Notes under the pieces: model-generated | Database searches by the model: none | Told to the model about the DNA's origin: nothing | Seen by the model: only the letters and a program-made list of their open reading frames with translations | From: an uncultured Gammaproteobacteria bacterium | GTDB taxonomy: Bacteria; Patescibacteriota; Microgenomatia; CAZXEC01 | Assembly: GCA_964639595.1 (NCBI GenBank) | Contig: CAZXEC010000001.1 | Location: forward strand, 88,111-152,110 | DNA: 64,000 nucleotides | Direction of reading: 5' to 3' | In this document: positions 49,932-56,889 of the stretch, in pieces | Numbering within the stretch: the first letter of the stretch is position 1 | How the letters are laid out: each line of letters opens with the position of its first letter | Made by a program: the position numbers and the translations under genes

Positions 49932-50393
49932 ATGCGTCATCAAGTTTTTGGCAGGAAACTGGGACGTAACAGCGGCGAGAGGCAAGCCCTCTTCCGTGGT
50001 TTGGCTCAAGCGCTGGTGTTGCGAGGCGCTATCATCACAACTGAAGCCAAAGCTAAGGCCATCAAGGGCTTGGTGGAAAAATTAGTCACCAAAGCCAAAA
50101 AAGACAAAAAACAAATGTTGTTTGATTTTTTCCAAAATAGCGAGACTGTTGATTTTTTGGTTAAAAATATTGCTCCCCGGATGATGAGCAGAGTCGGCGG
50201 ATATACCAGAATCGTATCATTGGGCCAGAGGAAAGGTGATGGTGCTGAAATGGTCAAGATGGACTGGATGGAAGCAAAATTAGCCAAAGAGCCGCCGGCA
50301 GCGGATGCCAAAAAAACATTAACTCTAACAAAAACCAGAAAGCCGGTTGCCAAAACTGCCAAAACCAAAACAACTTCCAAAAAAACTAAATAA
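49932..50393 (+). CDS. rplQ: 50S ribosomal protein L17 with a lysine-rich C-terminal tail
   Basis: MRHQVFGRKLGRNSGERQALFRGLA. Confidence 0.93.
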   Translation: MRHQVFGRKLGRNSGERQALFRGLAQALVLRGAIITTEAKAKAIKGLVEKLVTKAKKDKKQMLFDFFQNSETVDFLVKNIAPRMMSRVGGYTRIVSLGQRKGDGAEMVKMDWMEAKLAKEPPAADAKKTLTLTKTRKPVAKTAKTKTTSKKTK

Positions 50394-50396
50394 TTT

Positions 50397-50816
50397 ATGC
50401 AATCAACAGCCAGCGTTAAAGCCAAAGATATTAAAAGACAGTGGCAACTAATTGATGCCAGAGACCAAATTTTGGGCAGGATGGCTACCAGGATTGCCAC
50501 GCTTTTGCTGGGTAAGGGCAAGCCGTATTTTGTTCCCCATATGGATTGTGGTGATTATGTAGTAGTGGTCAATGCCGGCAAGGTTAAAACCACTGGTCGT
50601 AAACAAGAGCAAAAACAGTACAGTCGGTATTCAGGTTATCCGGGCGGACTCAAAAAAACATCCCTGGCTATCTTGAGAGAGAAAAAACCAACAGAGGTAA
50701 TCAAACATGCAGTGCGGGGAATGATGCCGCACAATAAATTAGGCCGGCAAAGTATTAAAAAATTATTTGTTTTTGAGGGGGGAAATCATCCCTATCAAGG
50801 TCAGGTGAAAAGCTAA
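50397..50816 (+). CDS. rplM: 50S ribosomal protein L13
   Basis: WQLIDARDQILGRMATRIATLLLGK. Confidence 0.93.
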   Translation: MQSTASVKAKDIKRQWQLIDARDQILGRMATRIATLLLGKGKPYFVPHMDCGDYVVVVNAGKVKTTGRKQEQKQYSRYSGYPGGLKKTSLAILREKKPTEVIKHAVRGMMPHNKLGRQSIKKLFVFEGGNHPYQGQVKS

Positions 50817-51268
50817 TGCCCAGAAAGAAAAAAGCAGCGCCGGTTATCAAGGAAGTAGTAAGTGAGAAACCTAAAGAGCAGGTAGTCTATCAAGCGGTGG
50901 GCCGCCGCAAATCGGCAGTGGCTCAAGCCAAACTTTTTGCCGGCGCCGGTAACTTAACGATTAACAGTCACCCCATATTGCAATATTTTTCCGGCCAGGT
51001 ATCAAAGCTGGCTTGGCAAAAACCTTTTCAAACAGTGGGAGCATTAGGTAAATTTGACGGTACGATTAAAGTTTACGGCTCCGGCAAAAGCGGCCAACTG
51101 GTGGCAGTTACTCATGCCATCTCCCGCGCCCTGCTGCAAGTCAATCCGGATTGGAGAAAGCCTCTCAAAAAACAAGGACTTTTGACCCGTGACCCCAGAG
51201 TTAGGGAAAGACGCAAATACGGCAACGCCCAAAAAGCGAGAGCGAAAAAGCAGTCACCCAAACGATAA
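50816..51268 (+). CDS. rpsI: 30S ribosomal protein S9 with an N-terminal extension
   Basis: YQAVGRRKSAVAQAKL...RERRKYG. Confidence 0.93.
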   Translation: MPRKKKAAPVIKEVVSEKPKEQVVYQAVGRRKSAVAQAKLFAGAGNLTINSHPILQYFSGQVSKLAWQKPFQTVGALGKFDGTIKVYGSGKSGQLVAVTHAISRALLQVNPDWRKPLKKQGLLTRDPRVRERRKYGNAQKARAKKQSPKR

Positions 51269-51422
51269 ATATTTTCGCCCGAAGTCCTGCTAAATCACTG
51301 CACATAACAAATTTTAAACGGGGAATTATACCTAAAGGCGAGCGAGGGCAACGGAAGCCGCTTCCTCGCCGATTCAAGGAGTGAGATATTCGTATTAAAT
51401 AAACACATCCTAATATTAGCTA

Positions 51423-51451
51423 TTGACAAGCTTGGCAGTTTATGCTATACT
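51423..51451 (+). promoter_or_regulatory. Near-consensus sigma70 promoter driving the island operon (TTGACA-17 nt-TATACT)
   Basis: TTGACA 51423-51428, 17-nt spacer, TATACT 51446-51451. Lies about 30 nt upstream of the first island ORF. Confidence 0.6.
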
Positions 51452-51480
51452 AGTCTCTGTTTTTAGATAAAATCAAAAAA

Positions 51481-51696
51481 ATGTCAGAGACACGTAAAGA
51501 AAAATTTGTAAGGTTAGCAACTTATCGGACTAATGTTGTGTTAGAGAAGCTCCGCATCCTCGGCAACCTTTCCAACAAAGCTAACTATGAATACTCCGAA
51601 GAGGAAATAAATAAAATCTTCTATGCTATTGATTCACAACTCCGGATCATAAAAGCTCGTTTTAGTGGTAAAAGGAAAAGAGAGTTTAAATTATGA
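51481..51696 (+). CDS. Hypothetical small basic protein (71 aa), first gene of the island operon
   Basis: No recognisable motif. Overlaps the next ORF by 4 nt (ATGA). Confidence 0.45.
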   Translation: MSETRKEKFVRLATYRTNVVLEKLRILGNLSNKANYEYSEEEINKIFYAIDSQLRIIKARFSGKRKREFKL

Positions 51697-52262
51697 AAAG
51701 AACCAGAAATACATTAGATGATTTACTCTTGCTTTGCATTAGTGATATTTTGGGGAAAAAACAAAAGTGTTCCTACGGAAATCTTGTTAAAAAGGCCTCT
51801 ACGAAATATCCCGAAGTTTTTAGTTTGTCAGATTATCCCAAATGGCCAGATTCTCTTAAGTTGGATCGGCCACTAAGGCAATTAAGAAGTGAAAGATTGA
51901 TAACAGGTAGCCCGACAACGTTTTATTCGTTGACTTCTCTGGGTAAAGAAAAAGTCAGATTTTTAAACAACAAACGGTTTCCGGTAAAAGACAACACTAG
52001 TAGGCCAACAAGAAGCCCCTCTTTGACATTTCTAAAAGAACTAGAAAATAGTGATGACTTTAAAGATTTTGCTTCAAACAAAGAAGACTTCAAGCCAAAT
52101 AATATGAAAATAAGAGCTCTGACAAGATTTACTCTAGAGACGCCTAAGAAAGTTATTTTAGACCACTTGCTCTTTTTAAAAAAAACTGCTCATCGAGAAA
52201 AAAAGGGAACTTTGGAAGATTTTTTAATCACTTACATAAATTACATCGAAAGAATTAAGTAA
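51693..52262 (+). CDS. Hypothetical protein with a putative N-terminal winged-helix domain (189 aa)
   Basis: Helix-turn-helix-like N-terminus with a wing-like ...LRSERLITGSPTTFYSLTSLGKEKV. Only 2 nt separate it from the downstream ATPase gene. The fold assignment is inference. Confidence 0.45.
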   Translation: MKRTRNTLDDLLLLCISDILGKKQKCSYGNLVKKASTKYPEVFSLSDYPKWPDSLKLDRPLRQLRSERLITGSPTTFYSLTSLGKEKVRFLNNKRFPVKDNTSRPTRSPSLTFLKELENSDDFKDFASNKEDFKPNNMKIRALTRFTLETPKKVILDHLLFLKKTAHREKKGTLEDFLITYINYIERIK

Positions 52263-52264
52263 AT

Positions 52265-54163
52265 ATGGATTTTCAAAGCGCAGAGTCGGGGCAACTGTCA
52301 GTTAACGAAGGAAGGTTAGTTAAGTCTCTTGCAGATAGTACAGTTAGAGGCATAATGGACGCAGTTGTAGAACTAGTAACGAATTGCGACGATAGCTATG
52401 TACGTCAAGAGCAAGAAGGTAGTAATTCTTCTGGTAGGATAGACCTCTATATTGATCGAGGTGCTGGTGGACATTGTAAAGAATTGAGGGTAATCGATGA
52501 GGCGGCCGGCATGGATTACCAAGCATTACGAAGAGCAATAGAATTTAGCGGGGAAACCAGCGGTTTTAAAGAAGGAAGAAGTGTCAGGGGTTTTTTTGGA
52601 CGCGGCCTAAAAGAATCCATACTCGCTTTGGGGATAGGGACGATATTTACCTTAAAAAAAGGTGTTCTTAGCAGAGCAATTATTTCTTATGACGAAAAGG
52701 AAAGGCAATCAAAATACGACCTATCAGTTCCTGTACAGAACCTTTCACAGGAAGAATTAATTAATTATGGTTTTTCGGGCAATTCAGGGACTTTAGTAAC
52801 AATTAAGATAACAAACACAAAGAAAGATTACATCCCAGGAAGAAATCATATAAAAGAACAGTTCCTAAAACACTATGCTTTCAGAGATATTAATTCTTCC
52901 ACAAAAAGAGCAGTGTATTTACACTTCTCGGATGTAGAAAGTAAAGATAAATATAGCTCAAATATCCCATTGGTTTATAAATGGCCGGAAGGGAAATTAG
53001 TTTTCGATAAGGATATGAAAATACTTAATTCAGTAGCTCATTTTAAAATTTACGAGAGCTTAGAACAGTTGCAAACTCCTAAAAATCCTACTGGTGAAGC
53101 AGGTCTATTGATAAAGACCGAAGGGGCGATTCTGGACAACCAATTATTTGGCTTCGAGACTGATCCAAACGGTCTATTTTTCTTCGGAGAAATAACTGCT
53201 CCGGGGATAGCCCAAGCAATTAGAAGCGGTGATGAATCTATCGTGGATACCAACAGAACAGGTTTAGCTCGGAACCACCCGTATAATAAAGAGCTTGAAA
53301 ATATAAGTAAGGAAATTCTAGGAAAACTTATTCAGGAAAGAAAAGAAAGACTAAAATCAGAGAAAAAAGCTGAGTTGGCAGAACCTATAAATAACCTTTT
53401 TAATAAATTATGCAAAGAATTATCAGATCTAGCAAAAGATGAACTCGAGGATAAGGAACCTGGTCCAGGAGAAGTCAAAGCATTTATGATCAAGCCTCTT
53501 TTTGCAAACATAGACCCTGAATCACCTAGGACACTTTCCGTATATTGTCCAAAGTATTTATCAGAAGATGAAGGAACAAAGGTTGTAAATCTTTTGAGTT
53601 CTAACGGGAATATAAAATTATCTAATGAATCCATAATTCTTGAACAATACAAAAGAGACCCAGATGTACTAAAGTCAACTTTTAAATTAAATGGAGAAAA
53701 CGAAGGCGAAGTGGCTCTAATAACGGCCACATTGGGACGAGTTACCGCCAATAGTGAAGTAAGGGTGCATAAATTAGGACACATAGGTCCAGGCTCAGAA
53801 AAACCTCCGACTGGTTCAGGAGGAGGAGTTTTTAGAAAGATAGAGCCTGCTTATGATGAAAGCCCAATACAAAGATTTGAATATGTTTCTGGAGGAATAA
53901 TAAAAGTATATATAAAGTTTCCTGGAGTTGGAGACATTTTAGGAGAAAATTTTGAGACTATAGAAACTCAGGGTGCAAGAGTCGCATTATCAGAGATTGT
54001 TATAGAAGCGTTTTCAAGACATATTTCCAGACAACGAGTTGGAAAATATGTAGAGGAGCAGATAGACCCTTTTACATCAGAGATGGATAGATTAAGAAAG
54101 AAAGCCACAAAGACTGTTTATAATATCCTTCTCCGAGCAGATTTGAGAGAATTATTAAATTAG
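52265..54163 (+). CDS. GHKL-superfamily (Bergerat-fold; MutL/MORC/histidine-kinase-like) ATPase, 632 aa, with a long domain of unknown function
   Basis: N-box ELVTNCDDS, G1-box RVIDEAAGMD, G2-box GFFGRGLKESILALGIGTIFT, all within the first 130 aa. No Hsp90 middle-domain signature. No HK dimerisation/His box. Confidence 0.75.
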   Translation: MDFQSAESGQLSVNEGRLVKSLADSTVRGIMDAVVELVTNCDDSYVRQEQEGSNSSGRIDLYIDRGAGGHCKELRVIDEAAGMDYQALRRAIEFSGETSGFKEGRSVRGFFGRGLKESILALGIGTIFTLKKGVLSRAIISYDEKERQSKYDLSVPVQNLSQEELINYGFSGNSGTLVTIKITNTKKDYIPGRNHIKEQFLKHYAFRDINSSTKRAVYLHFSDVESKDKYSSNIPLVYKWPEGKLVFDKDMKILNSVAHFKIYESLEQLQTPKNPTGEAGLLIKTEGAILDNQLFGFETDPNGLFFFGEITAPGIAQAIRSGDESIVDTNRTGLARNHPYNKELENISKEILGKLIQERKERLKSEKKAELAEPINNLFNKLCKELSDLAKDELEDKEPGPGEVKAFMIKPLFANIDPESPRTLSVYCPKYLSEDEGTKVVNLLSSNGNIKLSNESIILEQYKRDPDVLKSTFKLNGENEGEVALITATLGRVTANSEVRVHKLGHIGPGSEKPPTGSGGGVFRKIEPAYDESPIQRFEYVSGGIIKVYIKFPGVGDILGENFETIETQGARVALSEIVIEAFSRHISRQRVGKYVEEQIDPFTSEMDRLRKKATKTVYNILLRADLRELLN

Positions 54164-54175
54164 CGTCAACAACGA

Positions 54176-54409
54176 ATGTTTCAAGCGAAGAGGGCAAAAA
54201 AAATTACAATCGGTCAGGATGGAATCTATCTACTTAGACTAGCGCTTGAATCTTTTGAAGTCATTACCGAAGGTTTCAATCGGCAGGTCAATAAATTCCC
54301 AAGTATGCAATCTTCAATAAGGGCAAGAAAGATAATTCCAAAACTTAACAAGGCGATAATCGAAATACGGACAATTATTAAAAGACTTGAGAGAAATCTT
54401 AACTTTTAG
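54176..54409 (+). CDS. Hypothetical small protein (77 aa), last gene of the island + operon
   Basis: 12 nt downstream of the ATPase gene. Basic and helical. No recognisable motif. Confidence 0.4.
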   Translation: MFQAKRAKKITIGQDGIYLLRLALESFEVITEGFNRQVNKFPSMQSSIRARKIIPKLNKAIIEIRTIIKRLERNLNF

Positions 54410-54430
54410 GCTTAAAGATACCTATTATAT

Positions 54431-54487
54431 AAAAAGTTCTTTCCTCCTTCGCTAGGGCTACGGAAAGACAGGTAAAATTTTTGCGTG
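54431..54487. repeat. Copy A of an imperfect direct repeat of about 50 bp (AAAAGTTCTTT...TAAAATTTTTGCGTG)
   Basis: Shares an 11-nt 5' core and a 14-15-nt 3' core with copy B at 55829-55878. Located in the convergent intergenic gap. Confidence 0.5.
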
Positions 54488-54490
54488 ATT

Positions 54491-55114
54491 TTATCCTCTT
54501 TTAATCTTTTTCCAAAATCCGTCTGGAACGACCACTAATTTTAGAAAACTTAACCTTACCAGGAGACTATCAGCTGTAACTTCAAATTCTTGAGCCAGAT
54601 CGGGAAAAGTATCTGGAAGATCAAAAACCGAACAGGGGGTTGGAATACGATTTCGGCTCATAAATTGATCCCATCTTTCCTTCAAGACTTTTTCCGGCAT
54701 TAATACCATACTAGCAAAAGTTCTGGCTTGTCTTTCAATATAGTCGAATAACTTATTATCTAATTTCTCCTGCCATGTTATATATGGTTCTAAGCCTTTT
54801 GGGCCATCCTTGCTGTACCATTCTTTGTGAAGATATAAATGACCGATTTCCTCAGCAATAGTAAATCTTATTCGTTCCGGTTGTTTGGTATACATTCCTT
54901 CGTCTATCACGATAGAATCGAAGTTTTGGTTAATAAATGCATTTACTCCAAAATTTTTGATCAATCCACTAATTAAGATAATCCTAAGTCCTAATTTTAA
55001 TTCAGCTATATCCTCAATAGGTACTGGAAGAGTTAAAGAAGGATGACAATTTTCTAAAAATAAATTCGCTTGATTCTTAACGTCCTGAATATTTATCTCG
55101 TTGGGATTTTTCAT
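54491..55114 (-). CDS. ImmA/IrrE-family (M78-like) metallopeptidase-domain protein, second gene of the HTH-peptidase pair
   Basis: RFTIAEEIGHLYLH aligns to the ImmA/IrrE HEXXH helix, but the first His is replaced by Glu. Directly abuts the upstream HTH gene. Confidence 0.65.
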   Translation of the reverse strand: MKNPNEINIQDVKNQANLFLENCHPSLTLPVPIEDIAELKLGLRIILISGLIKNFGVNAFINQNFDSIVIDEGMYTKQPERIRFTIAEEIGHLYLHKEWYSKDGPKGLEPYITWQEKLDNKLFDYIERQARTFASMVLMPEKVLKERWDQFMSRNRIPTPCSVFDLPDTFPDLAQEFEVTADSLLVRLSFLKLVVVPDGFWKKIKRG

Positions 55115-55501
55115 TCATTTGTCTAGTAGAGTTATTAACTGCTCCAGTTTTTTTCTATCCAGTTTTTTATTTCTCATGGTTCTGAAGAATGCTGGTAGCA
55201 GATCATTTATATTTTCTTGATTTTTTATATCTGTGGGGATTTGTCCTTTGGCTGTATGTGCCAAATCATGAAATTTAATCCATTCTTCAGTGTCACGTTT
55301 TATTTTCAGAGCAGTTGCATATCCTGCTAATTTTTCATCATCTAGCGTAGGCGGCAAGATATTTCTTTCAAGTCTACTGATATTTCCTGGATCATAACCA
55401 TATCTTTCGCAAAACGCACGAAGGGAAAATCCAAGTTCTATTCTCTTTACTCTGAAGAAATCACCGAAATTTTGATTAGAAGCATCTTGAATTTTATTCA
55501 T
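55115..55501 (-). CDS. XRE-family helix-turn-helix transcriptional regulator
   Basis: FRVKRIELGFSLRAFCERYGYDPGNISRLERN, a Cro/C1-type HTH. ATG at 55501 chosen. The track ORF extends to a GTG at 55525, which lies inside a palindrome. Confidence 0.7.
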   Translation of the reverse strand: MNKIQDASNQNFGDFFRVKRIELGFSLRAFCERYGYDPGNISRLERNILPPTLDDEKLAGYATALKIKRDTEEWIKFHDLAHTAKGQIPTDIKNQENINDLLPAFFRTMRNKKLDRKKLEQLITLLDK

Positions 55502-55502
55502 A

Positions 55503-55556
55503 GTGTTGTAATAATAATACAACACTATTCTAGTATAGACTTTGACAGGTTGTCAA
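55503..55556. promoter_or_regulatory. Two operator-like inverted repeats in the divergent HTH/HNH promoter region
   Basis: GTGTTGTA-ATAATAA-TACAACAC (55503-55525). TTGACA-GGT-TGTCAA (55542-55556), the latter carrying a -35-like TTGACA. Confidence 0.55.
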
Positions 55557-55569
55557 GTTTTGAAAGGAG

Positions 55570-55812
55570 ATGAAGGTAAAAAATATAATGAATTATAAAT
55601 GTAGATATTGTGGATGGACAGGTCCAAGAAAAGATTTCGAGATTGACCATGTAATCCCAATTGTTAGGTCAATTTTACAGAATATCTTACAGCCAGCGCT
55701 AGATTTAATTTGTTCTGGTTGCAACAGACAAAAAGGCAGAATGACAGGAGCAGGATATATGGAGATTGCTAAATTCATTCGAAGCAAATTTAGGACCAAT
55801 TATCTAAAATGA
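55570..55812 (+). CDS. Small standalone HNH endonuclease (80 aa)
   Basis: CRYCGW...FEIDHVIP...N...CSGCNRQKG, the HNH beta-beta-alpha-Me with two CxxC pairs. Confidence 0.75.
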   Translation: MKVKNIMNYKCRYCGWTGPRKDFEIDHVIPIVRSILQNILQPALDLICSGCNRQKGRMTGAGYMEIAKFIRSKFRTNYLK

Positions 55813-55828
55813 AAAGATTGAATTTTTG

Positions 55829-55878
55829 AAAAGTTCTTTGCCTCGCCTTTGGCGAGGGGCGTGTTAAATTTTTGCGTG
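55829..55878. repeat. Copy B of the roughly 50-bp imperfect direct repeat; contains the CCTCGCC-TTT-GGCGAGG hairpin
   Basis: AAAAGTTCTTTG CCTCGCCTTTGGCGAGG GGCGTGTTAAATTTTTGCGTG. Confidence 0.5.
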
Positions 55879-55909
55879 TCAAATAATTGGCCTACCGAAT
55901 TTTATCAAA

Positions 55910-55943
55910 TTAACTAATCTCACCTGTTAACTAATCTCACCTG
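55910..55943. repeat. Perfect tandem duplication of the 17-mer TTAACTAATCTCACCTG
   Basis: 55910-55926 and 55927-55943 are identical. Confidence 0.8.
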
Positions 55944-55968
55944 GGAAGTGGATTAGCTTGACACCGAT

Positions 55969-56814
55969 TTAAGAAAATTTCAAAATTTGATCAAGTTTGT
56001 TGTTAGGAAATAAGTCTTTTGGATAAATAGAGATAACATTTAACCTTTGTTGTTGCCAGAACTTTTTCTTTCTTGCAATCAAAGCGTCGTATGCTTTAAC
56101 CTCTCCTTTTAATCCAAAAAATTCAATAAGACAGCCATTAACCTTAAAATCGGCAGTCATATTATCCTTACCGTAAGGAATATTTCTATCGTGGAGAATT
56201 TTTCTAGCATAAAACCAATCATCAATAATCTTCTCAGTTAATGAGTCGCATTTGTGTCCATCATTAGCAATATACTTTTTGGCATACTTAACCGGGTTAG
56301 GATTAAAACCTGCAGCTATGATAGCAGCATTCCAGCTACCAAAGCGAAGGCGTGCTGCTTTGTGTTGGCTAAATTCTCTTTTAAGAGGAATCCTTCCAGT
56401 CTTTTTATAGAACGATTGAATTTGCTCAATAATTATTTCTTTTACTATAATTTGACCAGCATTTTTACACGCCTTTGAGCAATACTTCTCTCGACCTTTA
56501 AATTCTTTATTGCAATAACCACACATTTTAATAACAGCATGCCTTTTGGGAAATCTTGAGTTATTTATTGTCGCTGCGCAAGAGCGAGAGCAATAGTAAG
56601 ATCTGGCATTCTTGAGTTCCTTCAATTGCCGTTTGAAGATCTTGCCACAAGAAGGATTAGTGCAGATAAGCGCTTTTTGTTTATTTCTTGCCTTGCTTAT
56701 ACATTCTAGAGAGCAATATATATTCCAGTCAAACTTTTTACCTTCATTGATTCTCCCTTGACTACGAAGAATAATTTTTTTACATCGATCACATTTAACA
56801 GGCAAAAGTTCCAT
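55969..56814 (-). CDS. Multi-zinc-ribbon protein with a C-terminal Vsr/DUF559-like PD-(D/E)xK endonuclease domain
   Basis: Six or more CxxC pairs in the N-terminal half. C-terminus DSLTEKIIDDWF...ADFKVNGCLIEFFGLKG...YDALIARKKKFW...LNVISIY matches the Vsr/DUF559 core. Start codon is 2 nt from the tRNA-like 3' end. Confidence 0.6.
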   Translation of the reverse strand: MELLPVKCDRCKKIILRSQGRINEGKKFDWNIYCSLECISKARNKQKALICTNPSCGKIFKRQLKELKNARSYYCSRSCAATINNSRFPKRHAVIKMCGYCNKEFKGREKYCSKACKNAGQIIVKEIIIEQIQSFYKKTGRIPLKREFSQHKAARLRFGSWNAAIIAAGFNPNPVKYAKKYIANDGHKCDSLTEKIIDDWFYARKILHDRNIPYGKDNMTADFKVNGCLIEFFGLKGEVKAYDALIARKKKFWQQQRLNVISIYPKDLFPNNKLDQILKFS

Positions 56815-56815
56815 G

Positions 56816-56889
56816 TCGGGGGAACTGGTTCCGCCCCAGCGACCTCTCGCACCCCATGCGAGTGCTCTAACTATCTGAGCTACCCCCCG
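56816..56889 (-). tRNA. tRNA-Pro(GGG)-like gene, 74 nt, CCA not encoded, atypical D- and T-loops
   Basis: Minus-strand RNA is CGGGGGG-TA-GCTC-AGATAGTTA-GAGC-A-CTCGC-ATGGGGT-GCGAG-AGGTC-GCTGG-GGCGGAA-CCAGT-TCCCCCG-A. C1:G72 pair and A73 fit tRNA-Pro. Anticodon loop has U33, GGG, G37. The D-loop lacks GG and the T-loop is GGCGGAA, not TTCRANY. Confidence 0.55.

Follow-up and report, generated by a model that had tools for sequence, protein, structure and literature searches.

The stretch of DNA analyzed here (64 kb of contig CAZXEC010000001.1, hereafter the window) carries on its minus strand a gene for an XRE-family repressor of 128 amino acids (aa; 55115–55501), followed by a gene for a 207-aa M78/ImmA-like peptidase (54491–55114). 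The pair is divergent from a small HNH nuclease gene on the plus strand (open reading frame [ORF], 55570–55812), and the region between them contains two palindromes (55503–55525 and 55542–55556). A preliminary description, made from the sequence alone, had located both palindromes at these positions and had recognized a zero-gap regulatory pair of an XRE helix-turn-helix (HTH) gene and an ImmA/IrrE-family gene. These observations are borne out, and the pair is of the cleavable-repressor type. The junction of the two genes reads TGAATG, with the repressor stop codon TGA at 55117–55115 and the peptidase start codon ATG at 55114–55112. In most homologous loci the intergenic gap is 0 to -4 nt, and the repressor precedes the peptidase in all loci examined.

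The peptidase matches Pfam PF06114 (Peptidase_M78) over residues 76–189 (E = 1.4e-13; 51.1 bits compared to a cut-off of 22), and its best PADLOC match is capP (E = 1.8e-15), confined to the peptidase domain (profile positions 3–124 of 242). Based on fold and profile it belongs to the M78/COG2856 family, yet the family motif of HEXXH with a downstream Glu is present only as a variant (EEIGH). The AlphaFold2 (AF2) model (predicted local distance difference test [pLDDT], 92.6) shows a peptidase domain and a helical linker domain, the chain being helical from residue 141 to the C-terminus. Its best matches among solved structures are IrrE/PprI (8sln, 3dti), PrpR of M. tuberculosis (6cz6), and CapP (7t5t); IrrE/PprI of Deinococcus is the best match in fold, and CapP is the closest solved relative in sequence (7t5t, E = 5.6e-5 with the family profile). 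The model and the structure matches revealed no GAF domain, and no Cys was found in the loop between His96 and Glu127 (residues 97–126, KEWYSKDGPKGLEPYITWQEKLDNKLFDYI), where CapP has FQCSD. Because the GAF domain and the cysteine-switch loop, which together form the single-stranded DNA (ssDNA) sensor of CapP, are both absent, the modeled build of the peptidase resembles ImmA more than CapP or IrrE. The earlier comparison with CapH/CapP thus holds for the pairing of repressor and peptidase, but "CapP-like" overstates the likeness of the enzyme. The closest genome match of the peptidase (90% identity) is in a metagenome-assembled genome (MAG) of Candidatus Daviesbacteria, which makes the host a Patescibacteria/Microgenomates bacterium. 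NCBIfam holds no specific family for the peptidase or the repressor, the curated families covering neither protein.

The start codon of the repressor is most likely ATG 55501, as in its 128-aa homologues, and not GTG 55525, which a mechanical ORF list had given. Its AF2 model (pLDDT 82.8) comprises an N-terminal five-helix HTH of the XRE/Cro type and two C-terminal helices (residues 98–109 and 116–127), which resemble the two-helix dimerization domain of CapH. The model aligns to C.AhdI, SinR, P22 c2, the N-terminal domain of CapH (7t5u), and ImmR (7t8i) at 1.8–2.5 Å over 57–62 residues, and DdrO (6jq1/6rnx) aligns with it from end to end. We found 253 homologues, some of which are labeled XRE-family regulators in their sources, and the recognition-helix region (D37–R46, DPGNISRLER) is invariant. 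Conservation is much higher in the repressor than in the peptidase: in L024 (related genome loci are given L numbers here) it is 66% identical to that of the window, compared to 42% for the peptidase.

A clade-wide Glu in the metal-binding helix

The metal-binding helix of the peptidase reads AEEIGHLYLH (residues 87–96, codons 54856–54827 on the minus strand), and the preliminary description had taken its second residue as a Glu in place of the first zinc-ligand His. Alignment to CapP (7t5t) agrees with this assignment, pairing RFTIAEEIGH with RFTQAHELGH and IERQA with IEAQA. Glu88, Glu89, and His92 fall on CapP His96, Glu97, and His100, so that Glu88 (GAG, 54853–54851) replaces the first His ligand, whereas the catalytic base Glu89 (GAA) and the second ligand His92 are intact. 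The third metal ligand, Glu127 in IERQA (54734–54736, minus strand), pairs with CapP Glu129.

The substitution is not peculiar to this genome. EExGH is invariant in 49 close homologues (53–91% identity, 69% mean column identity), among which E88, E89, G91, H92, H96, and E127 do not vary, whereas relatives at ≤44% identity, including other Patescibacteria, carry HExxH in 67 of the 71 parsed genome loci and in 143 of 149 top representatives, and Glu127 is present in 98% of the HExxH relatives. In a neighbor-joining tree, all main Glu-type sequences form one clade without a His-type member, and this clade extends to 45% identity (L106 and L107, the distant L106 being part of it in the tree). A second, independent His-to-Glu change was found in P0176 (RFSIAEEIGH), whose nearest neighbors are all HExxH; given its place among His-type sequences, the change arose at least twice. 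The Glu88 codons among distinct DNA sequences are GAA (11 cases) and GAG (4 cases). The replacement of His by Glu takes two base changes, and neither a Gln nor an Asp intermediate was seen. When 51 Glu-type and 137 His-type sequences were compared column by column, positions 88 (E/H) and 47 (L/P) alone discriminated the two groups. Both groups share E89, H92, H96, E127, Q129, D71, R81, and R83, and the wider motif RFTxAxExGHxxLH is fully retained except at residue 88. We also considered compensation by a newly acquired His or Cys nearby, which the same comparison rules out.

These patterns indicate that Glu88 is a fixed character of a monophyletic clade of Patescibacteria. A sequencing error or a one-off mutation at residue 88 is excluded by the 49 homologues together with the codon data. 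The missing canonical zinc ligand could also mark a decaying or inactive remnant, that is, a pseudo-enzyme heading for loss, but the ORF is intact, the variant motif is invariant throughout the clade, both Glu codons are in use, and the same change arose independently again, all of which make decay a highly improbable explanation. We argue instead that the metal site is still in use. The preliminary description had suggested altered or lost activity, and the two halves of that suggestion fare differently: loss of activity is unlikely, since Glu88 is invariant despite synonymous codon turnover and the other catalytic residues are kept, whereas a changed metal preference is plausible in view of two precedents. 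Zn, Mn, and Fe each support the activity of IrrE, and the ZIP8/ZIP14 transporters require EEXXH in place of HEXXH for Mn transport. The ZIP8/ZIP14 case involves the same first-position change from His to Glu, likewise fixed in a subfamily, and Mn transport is lost on reversion to HEXXH; however, the motif there belongs to a transport pathway that shares neither fold nor function with the peptidase, and the likeness is an analogy alone. A literature search on EEXXH in peptidases returned nothing relevant, the motif appearing in papers on the ZIP8/ZIP14 transporters alone.

The presumed substrate side of the pair is also conserved. The repressor motif LPAF[FY]-R, which reads LPAFFRT in the window, has invariant L102, P103, R107, and R110 and nearly invariant A104, F105, and T108. 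Known repressors of this type are cut at F82/R83 (CapH), L106/R107 (DdrO), and F95/M96 (ImmR), and because Phe106–Arg107 (codons 55181–55186, minus strand) matches the hydrophobic/Arg cut sites of CapH and DdrO, we predict by analogy that cleavage would occur at this bond. The stretch differs with the type of partner, being FFRTMRNKK next to EExxH peptidases and FYRTARGEK next to HExxH peptidases, which hints at co-variation between enzyme and substrate.

The same stretch and the altered ligand can be read in another way. De Groot et al. report COG2856 proteins that inhibit repressor oligomerization without cleavage, and the Glu88 variant could act as a non-proteolytic anti-repressor that blocks repressor dimerization through the C-terminal helices, as reported for Rir/Crh of a Streptococcus prophage, with its conserved "active-site" residues serving binding or folding. 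The changed zinc ligand agrees with this proposal, and a clade-specific, substrate-like stretch in the repressor fits binding equally well as cleavage. Binding alone, however, leaves the invariance of Glu89, His92, and Glu127 unexplained, and Rir keeps HEXXH but deviates in the larger surrounding motif, the reverse of the situation at residue 88. We therefore regard the anti-repressor, the main rival to a proteolytic switch, as unlikely.

Predicted operator and promoters

The first palindrome, GTGTTGTA-N7-TACAACAC (55503–55525), is unique in the window and lies within a near-perfect 29-bp palindrome (55500–55528; 14-nt arms, 93% complementary) with the core GTTGTA-N7-TACAAC at 55505–55523. This core was found in 80 of 80 related genome loci with ≤2 mismatches (mostly 0), at a position 395–650 nt upstream of the start of the peptidase match, where the repressor gene has its 5′ end; as background, 21 matches occur in the 746 kb that make up the rest of these loci. 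The loci belong to Patescibacteria, Planctomycetota, Nitrospirota, Acidobacteriota, Methylomirabilota, Omnitrophota, and other phyla. Patescibacteria loci typically have one operator. Two tandem copies occur in L030–L033, L035, L038, L042, L046, L073, L085, and L090, mostly non-Patescibacteria relatives with one Woesebacteria MAG among them, and their starts are mostly 17–19 nt apart, except in L090, where they overlap (9 nt apart). The palindrome certainly goes beyond chance in sequence terms, and its presence in every related locus, together with the promoter overlap described below and the invariant recognition helix, makes it a convincing candidate for the autoregulatory operator of the family. 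A search of the literature for the operator sequence found nothing relevant.

An alternative role of this palindrome as an mRNA hairpin that hides the start codon (-13.3 kcal/mol, z = -4.3) was rejected in favor of the operator, since the predicted transcription start lies inside the 5′ arm and conservation takes the form of DNA half-sites with variable loops. The preliminary description had recommended searching for the palindromes elsewhere, and in the window each proved to be single-copy: no further operator was found in the 64 kb, including the region upstream of recA (56981). A wider regulon was thus rejected for the window.

The operator overlaps two promoter-like sites in back-to-back orientation. 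The site of the repressor-peptidase operon (55527–55556, minus strand) consists of TTGACA (55556–55551), an 18-nt spacer, and TAGAAT (55532–55527), matching the consensus at 11 of 12 positions, and the operator spans about -8 to +21 relative to this promoter. The candidate cargo promoter (55487–55515, plus strand; 9 of 12 positions) combines TTGAAT (55487–55492), a 17-nt spacer, and AATAAT (55510–55515); its -35 box lies inside repressor codons 3–5, and its -10 box, preceded by TG, is in the operator loop. Of 29 Patescibacteria-type loci, 21 retain AAAGTCAA (TTGACT when read on the opposite strand) at the position of the cargo -35 box. Repressor codons 3–5 (Lys-Ser-Gln, AAA AGT CAA; 55487–55495 in the window) are conserved within an N-terminus whose other residues vary and which the model shows as disordered. 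Because AAAGTCAA also precedes the start codon in L043 (around 1700), where it is non-coding, these codons are probably conserved at the DNA level as a -35 box of the opposite strand. Based on this arrangement, the operator would cover the -10/start region of both promoters, and a single bound dimer would shut both.

On the operon side, 54 of 82 loci have a TTGACA box whose spacing from the operator is constant. The typical Patescibacteria layout is TTGACA, 10–11 nt, GTTGTA, an AT-rich loop (-10-like), TACAAC, 2–3 nt, and ATG, so that the repressor mRNA would be nearly leaderless. The window, L014, L015, L021, and L024 form a "long" promoter subclass, in which TTGACA is 27 nt from the operator. 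The promoter/operator region of this class is ~75% identical between L024 and the window.

The second palindrome, TTGACA-GGT-TGTCAA (55542–55556), has 6-bp arms with mismatched flanking bases, and one arm is the operon -35 box, in agreement with the -35 overlap described earlier. It is unique in the window, where 0.24 matches with ≤1 mismatch are expected by chance; by itself it is weakly supported as going beyond chance. Among the 82 loci, the inverted GTCAA half is confined to the window, L014, L015, and L021 (four of the five single-operator "long" loci) and to L029, where the spacing differs. The remaining 77 loci lack it, and the half that is conserved is the TTGACA -35 box. Of the two palindromes put forward as autoregulatory operators in the preliminary description, the first is thus upheld across the family and the second is not: the latter is not a family operator, though it may be a feature of the "long" promoter cassette. 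Three other roles for this region were tried and rejected. A hairpin formed by the second palindrome in the leader RNA of the HNH gene has no unusual stability (z = 0.25); TTGACA at 55542–55547 as a plus-strand -35 box has no -10-like hexamer 16–18 nt downstream; and a plus-strand TTGAAA-18-TATAAT (55560–55589) was taken as a chance match, since it extends over the start codon of the HNH gene and would truncate the ORF.

Divergent cargo and the surrounding island

The divergent gene encodes an HNH protein (Pfam HNH, E = 2.4e-8) in which CxxC, DH, N, and CxxCN are all present. Its ORF opens with ATG 55570, which AAGGAG immediately precedes, but translation is likely to start at ATG 55588 (74 aa), with GAAGG (55572–55576) probably serving as the ribosome-binding site; the L014 orthologue starts at the equivalent of 55588 (MTYKC compared to MNYKC). 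A terminator-like hairpin (55844–55861, plus strand) lies 3′ of the gene. About two-thirds of the Patescibacteria-type loci have a divergent gene that starts 24–64 nt from the operator and is equipped with a strong ribosome-binding site, and the cargo varies: HNH (the window and L014), GIY-YIG-like proteins, 95–98-aa proteins with a weak Mrr-like match, DUF1508, DUF3467, a flavodoxin-like protein, and very basic proteins of 40–57 aa. The last of these constitute a family (MA..TSKRV.K.ASK.L...S.AGSALSQ..) present in L013, L015/L094, L021/L022, L024, L026, L027, and L130, which has no Pfam match and adjoins both Glu-type and His-type peptidases. The genes on the far side of the pair vary as well and are often convergent; they encode, for example, large unknown proteins, a Type ISP restriction enzyme, or RmuC together with a UvrD/PD-(D/E)xK protein. 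In L001, a serine recombinase is the divergent neighbor of the pair, a point of likeness to ImmR/ImmA.

In the window, the gene pair and its cargo are part of a low-G+C island (~51300–56850, ~35% compared to 44–52% in the flanks) located between rpsI and recA. The flanks are encoded on the plus strand, with rplQ, rplM, and rpsI at 49932–51268 and recA, recX, and rny from 56981. The gene order within the island is a GHKL operon (+), the peptidase and repressor (-), HNH (+), and a 281-aa gene (55969–56814, -), whose product has a Cys-rich N-terminus, a homing-endonuclease-associated repeat (PF18780), and a C-terminal PADLOC match to PDC-S69 (E = 7e-11). The GHKL operon (51481–54409, plus strand; 71, 189, 632, and 77 aa), named for the N-terminal HATPase_c_3 domain of its 632-aa protein, is convergent with the peptidase gene. 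None of its four genes matched PADLOC, NCBIfam, or PHROG families, and it is possibly an uncharacterized defence-like system. Family scans of the island found no integrase, excisionase, or phage structural families, and the window contains no tRNA or conjugation genes. The idea that the island is a prophage or an integrative and conjugative element (ICE) was rejected, because tRNA genes, an integrase, and phage structural families were not found.

Two copies of an element of the form AAAAGTTCTTT-[GC-rich hairpin]-TAAATTTTTGCGTG are present in the window, at 54432–54487 and 55829–55878 (plus strand, same orientation). They bracket the peptidase-repressor-HNH module, and their hairpin sequences differ. 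In L014 and L015, the 11- and 13-nt flanks are contiguous, without a hairpin, and present as a single copy just beyond the cargo gene. These elements could represent a terminator family or a cassette boundary; integron-like sites were also considered.

The diversity of neighbors raises the question of what the pair regulates. Control of a neighboring defence operon in the manner of CapH/CapP, for example of the convergent GHKL-ATPase operon, would agree with the capP match in PADLOC and with the homologous pairs that adjoin a Type ISP restriction enzyme, a UvrD/PD-(D/E)xK helicase-nuclease with RmuC, AAA ATPases, or recombinases. However, the large neighbors are tail to tail with the pair here and different in every locus, whereas CapH/CapP are encoded upstream of their operon and point away from it, and the window has one operator and the peptidase no GAF domain; we consider such control very unlikely. 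Since no second operator was found in the 64 kb, regulation of a larger defence operon is unsupported, and the pair probably regulates nothing beyond the small divergent HNH gene. The variable far-side genes and the single operator in the window suggest that cargo, repressor, and peptidase make up the functional unit, a composition that matches both the three-component idea of Makarova et al. and the divergent arrangement of CapH/CapP.

The spread of the two-gene cassette through unrelated neighborhoods, its place within a low-G+C island in the window, and the inclusion of Xre-COG2856 among the toxin-antitoxin (TA)-like mobile modules of Makarova et al. would also suit an addiction cassette, in which an Xre antitoxin and a COG2856 "toxin" stabilize the island without a regulatory target of their own. 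Published tests, however, found COG2856 proteins to be non-toxic in S. pneumoniae and E. coli, Makarova et al. themselves favored a protease that cleaves the Xre repressor of a third component, and a cross-phylum operator that spans two divergent promoters better fits transcriptional control. Addiction is accordingly a very unlikely role for the cassette.

A proposed switch and its relation to known systems

We propose that the locus works as a cleavable-repressor switch, in which one local operator serves two promoters, the cargo is swappable, a clade-fixed Glu replaces the first zinc-binding His and the rest of the catalytic site is kept, a reading to which we assign a probability of about 0.6. 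A dimer of the 128-aa repressor would bind GTTGTA-N7-TACAAC (29 bp in the window) and, by occupying the -10/start regions, hold down both the repressor-peptidase operon and the divergent HNH cargo. Upon a stress signal, the co-translated 207-aa M78 peptidase would inactivate the repressor, most likely by a cut at Phe106/Arg107 within the C-terminal dimerization helices, and both the operon and the cargo would be switched on. In the Patescibacteria clade, the enzyme with its Glu/His/Glu site would most likely still be catalytic, with an altered metal affinity or preference.

Several points weigh against this proposal. The Pfam matches of the repressor to HTH_31/HTH_3 are weak and below the curated cut-offs (HTH_31, 20.4 compared to 27). 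The peptidase is without the GAF domain and the cysteine switch that sense ssDNA in CapP and IrrE. A His-to-Glu change at a zinc ligand normally weakens zinc binding, and the variant enzyme may not be catalytic. Both promoters are putative, assigned by matches to a consensus that may not be that of the host. Finally, the cargo differs by locus and is absent in some (L010 and L001), so that its control may not be the core function.

Among characterized systems, ImmR/ImmA of Bacillus subtilis ICEBs1 and phage phi105 likewise places a short, GAF-less M78 peptidase directly downstream of an XRE repressor in one operon. The ImmR repressor is autoregulated and faces a divergent promoter, an arrangement predicted from the sequence here, and its cut at F95/M96 follows an aromatic residue in the C-terminal part, as would the one at F106/R107. 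In contrast to ImmR/ImmA, which is located in an ICE or prophage and controls excision or lytic genes, the pair in the window is divergent from a lone HNH gene of 74–80 aa; in addition, the first zinc ligand is Glu, and the similarity to the solved ImmR is limited to the HTH fold. ImmA is known to be activated through RecA or RapI. CapH/CapP is alike in combining an XRE repressor that has a two-helix C-terminal dimerization domain with an M78 peptidase, and the CapH cut at F82/R83 resembles that predicted at F106/R107. CapP, however, is larger (~290 aa; peptidase, HTH, and GAF) and holds ssDNA in the groove between peptidase and GAF domains, whereas the peptidase in the window has 207 aa and lacks both the GAF domain and the cysteine switch found in about a third of CapPs. 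CapH/CapP, a regulator of the cyclic oligonucleotide-based antiphage signaling system (CBASS) and other defence operons, is also upstream of and divergent from the immune operon that it controls, whereas the cargo here is one small gene and not an operon of the CBASS type.

Although IrrE/PprI is the best fold match of the peptidase and DdrO spans the whole repressor model, the DdrO/IrrE system differs in scope. DdrO is cut at L106/R107 in a basic stretch by IrrE, a metal-dependent enzyme with promiscuous use of Zn, Mn, and Fe, and IrrE carries a GAF domain, which the peptidase here does not. The DdrO regulon is defined by the 17-bp palindromic radiation/desiccation response motif (RDRM) and includes recA, whereas the operator here is a different, local one that occurs once in 64 kb and is not found upstream of the adjacent recA, and thus does not define a DNA-repair regulon. 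The Xre/COG2856/toxin modules of Makarova et al. 2009 were predicted as mobile cassettes in which the protease was proposed to cleave the Xre repressor of a third, toxin-like gene. The third gene in loci related to the window is often a small nuclease, similar to that toxin-like component; nevertheless, the partners predicted by Makarova et al. 2009 are RelE or PIN toxins in the same operon, whereas the cargo here is divergent and highly variable.

Going further, Glu88 might confer use of, or gating by, a metal harder than zinc, such as Mn2+ or Fe2+, so that the switch reads metal or redox state and not ssDNA, and the family might represent an undescribed, multi-phylum plug-in induction cassette. 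We regard this extension as doubtful. If it is true, each cassette would combine an XRE repressor and an M78 peptidase lacking a GAF domain with the GTTGTA-N7-TACAAC operator, which would be universal, and with a very small divergent gene that can be exchanged and often encodes a nuclease. Neither the Glu variant nor the pan-phylum operator was found in the searchable literature.

Cleavable-repressor switches such as ImmR/ImmA, DdrO/IrrE, and CapH/CapP time the activity of mobile elements, repair genes, and anti-phage systems. The family would provide a compact model for those with short, GAF-less peptidases, with a cross-phylum 19-bp operator, two promoters per operator, and interchangeable cargo. 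With its Glu-for-His change, the clade amounts to a natural experiment with the M78 metal site: either a Glu/His/Glu site is tolerated with a changed metal preference, or the peptidase fold has turned into a binding-only anti-repressor. For uncultivated Patescibacteria, the system would give a first regulatory circuit with a defined operator.

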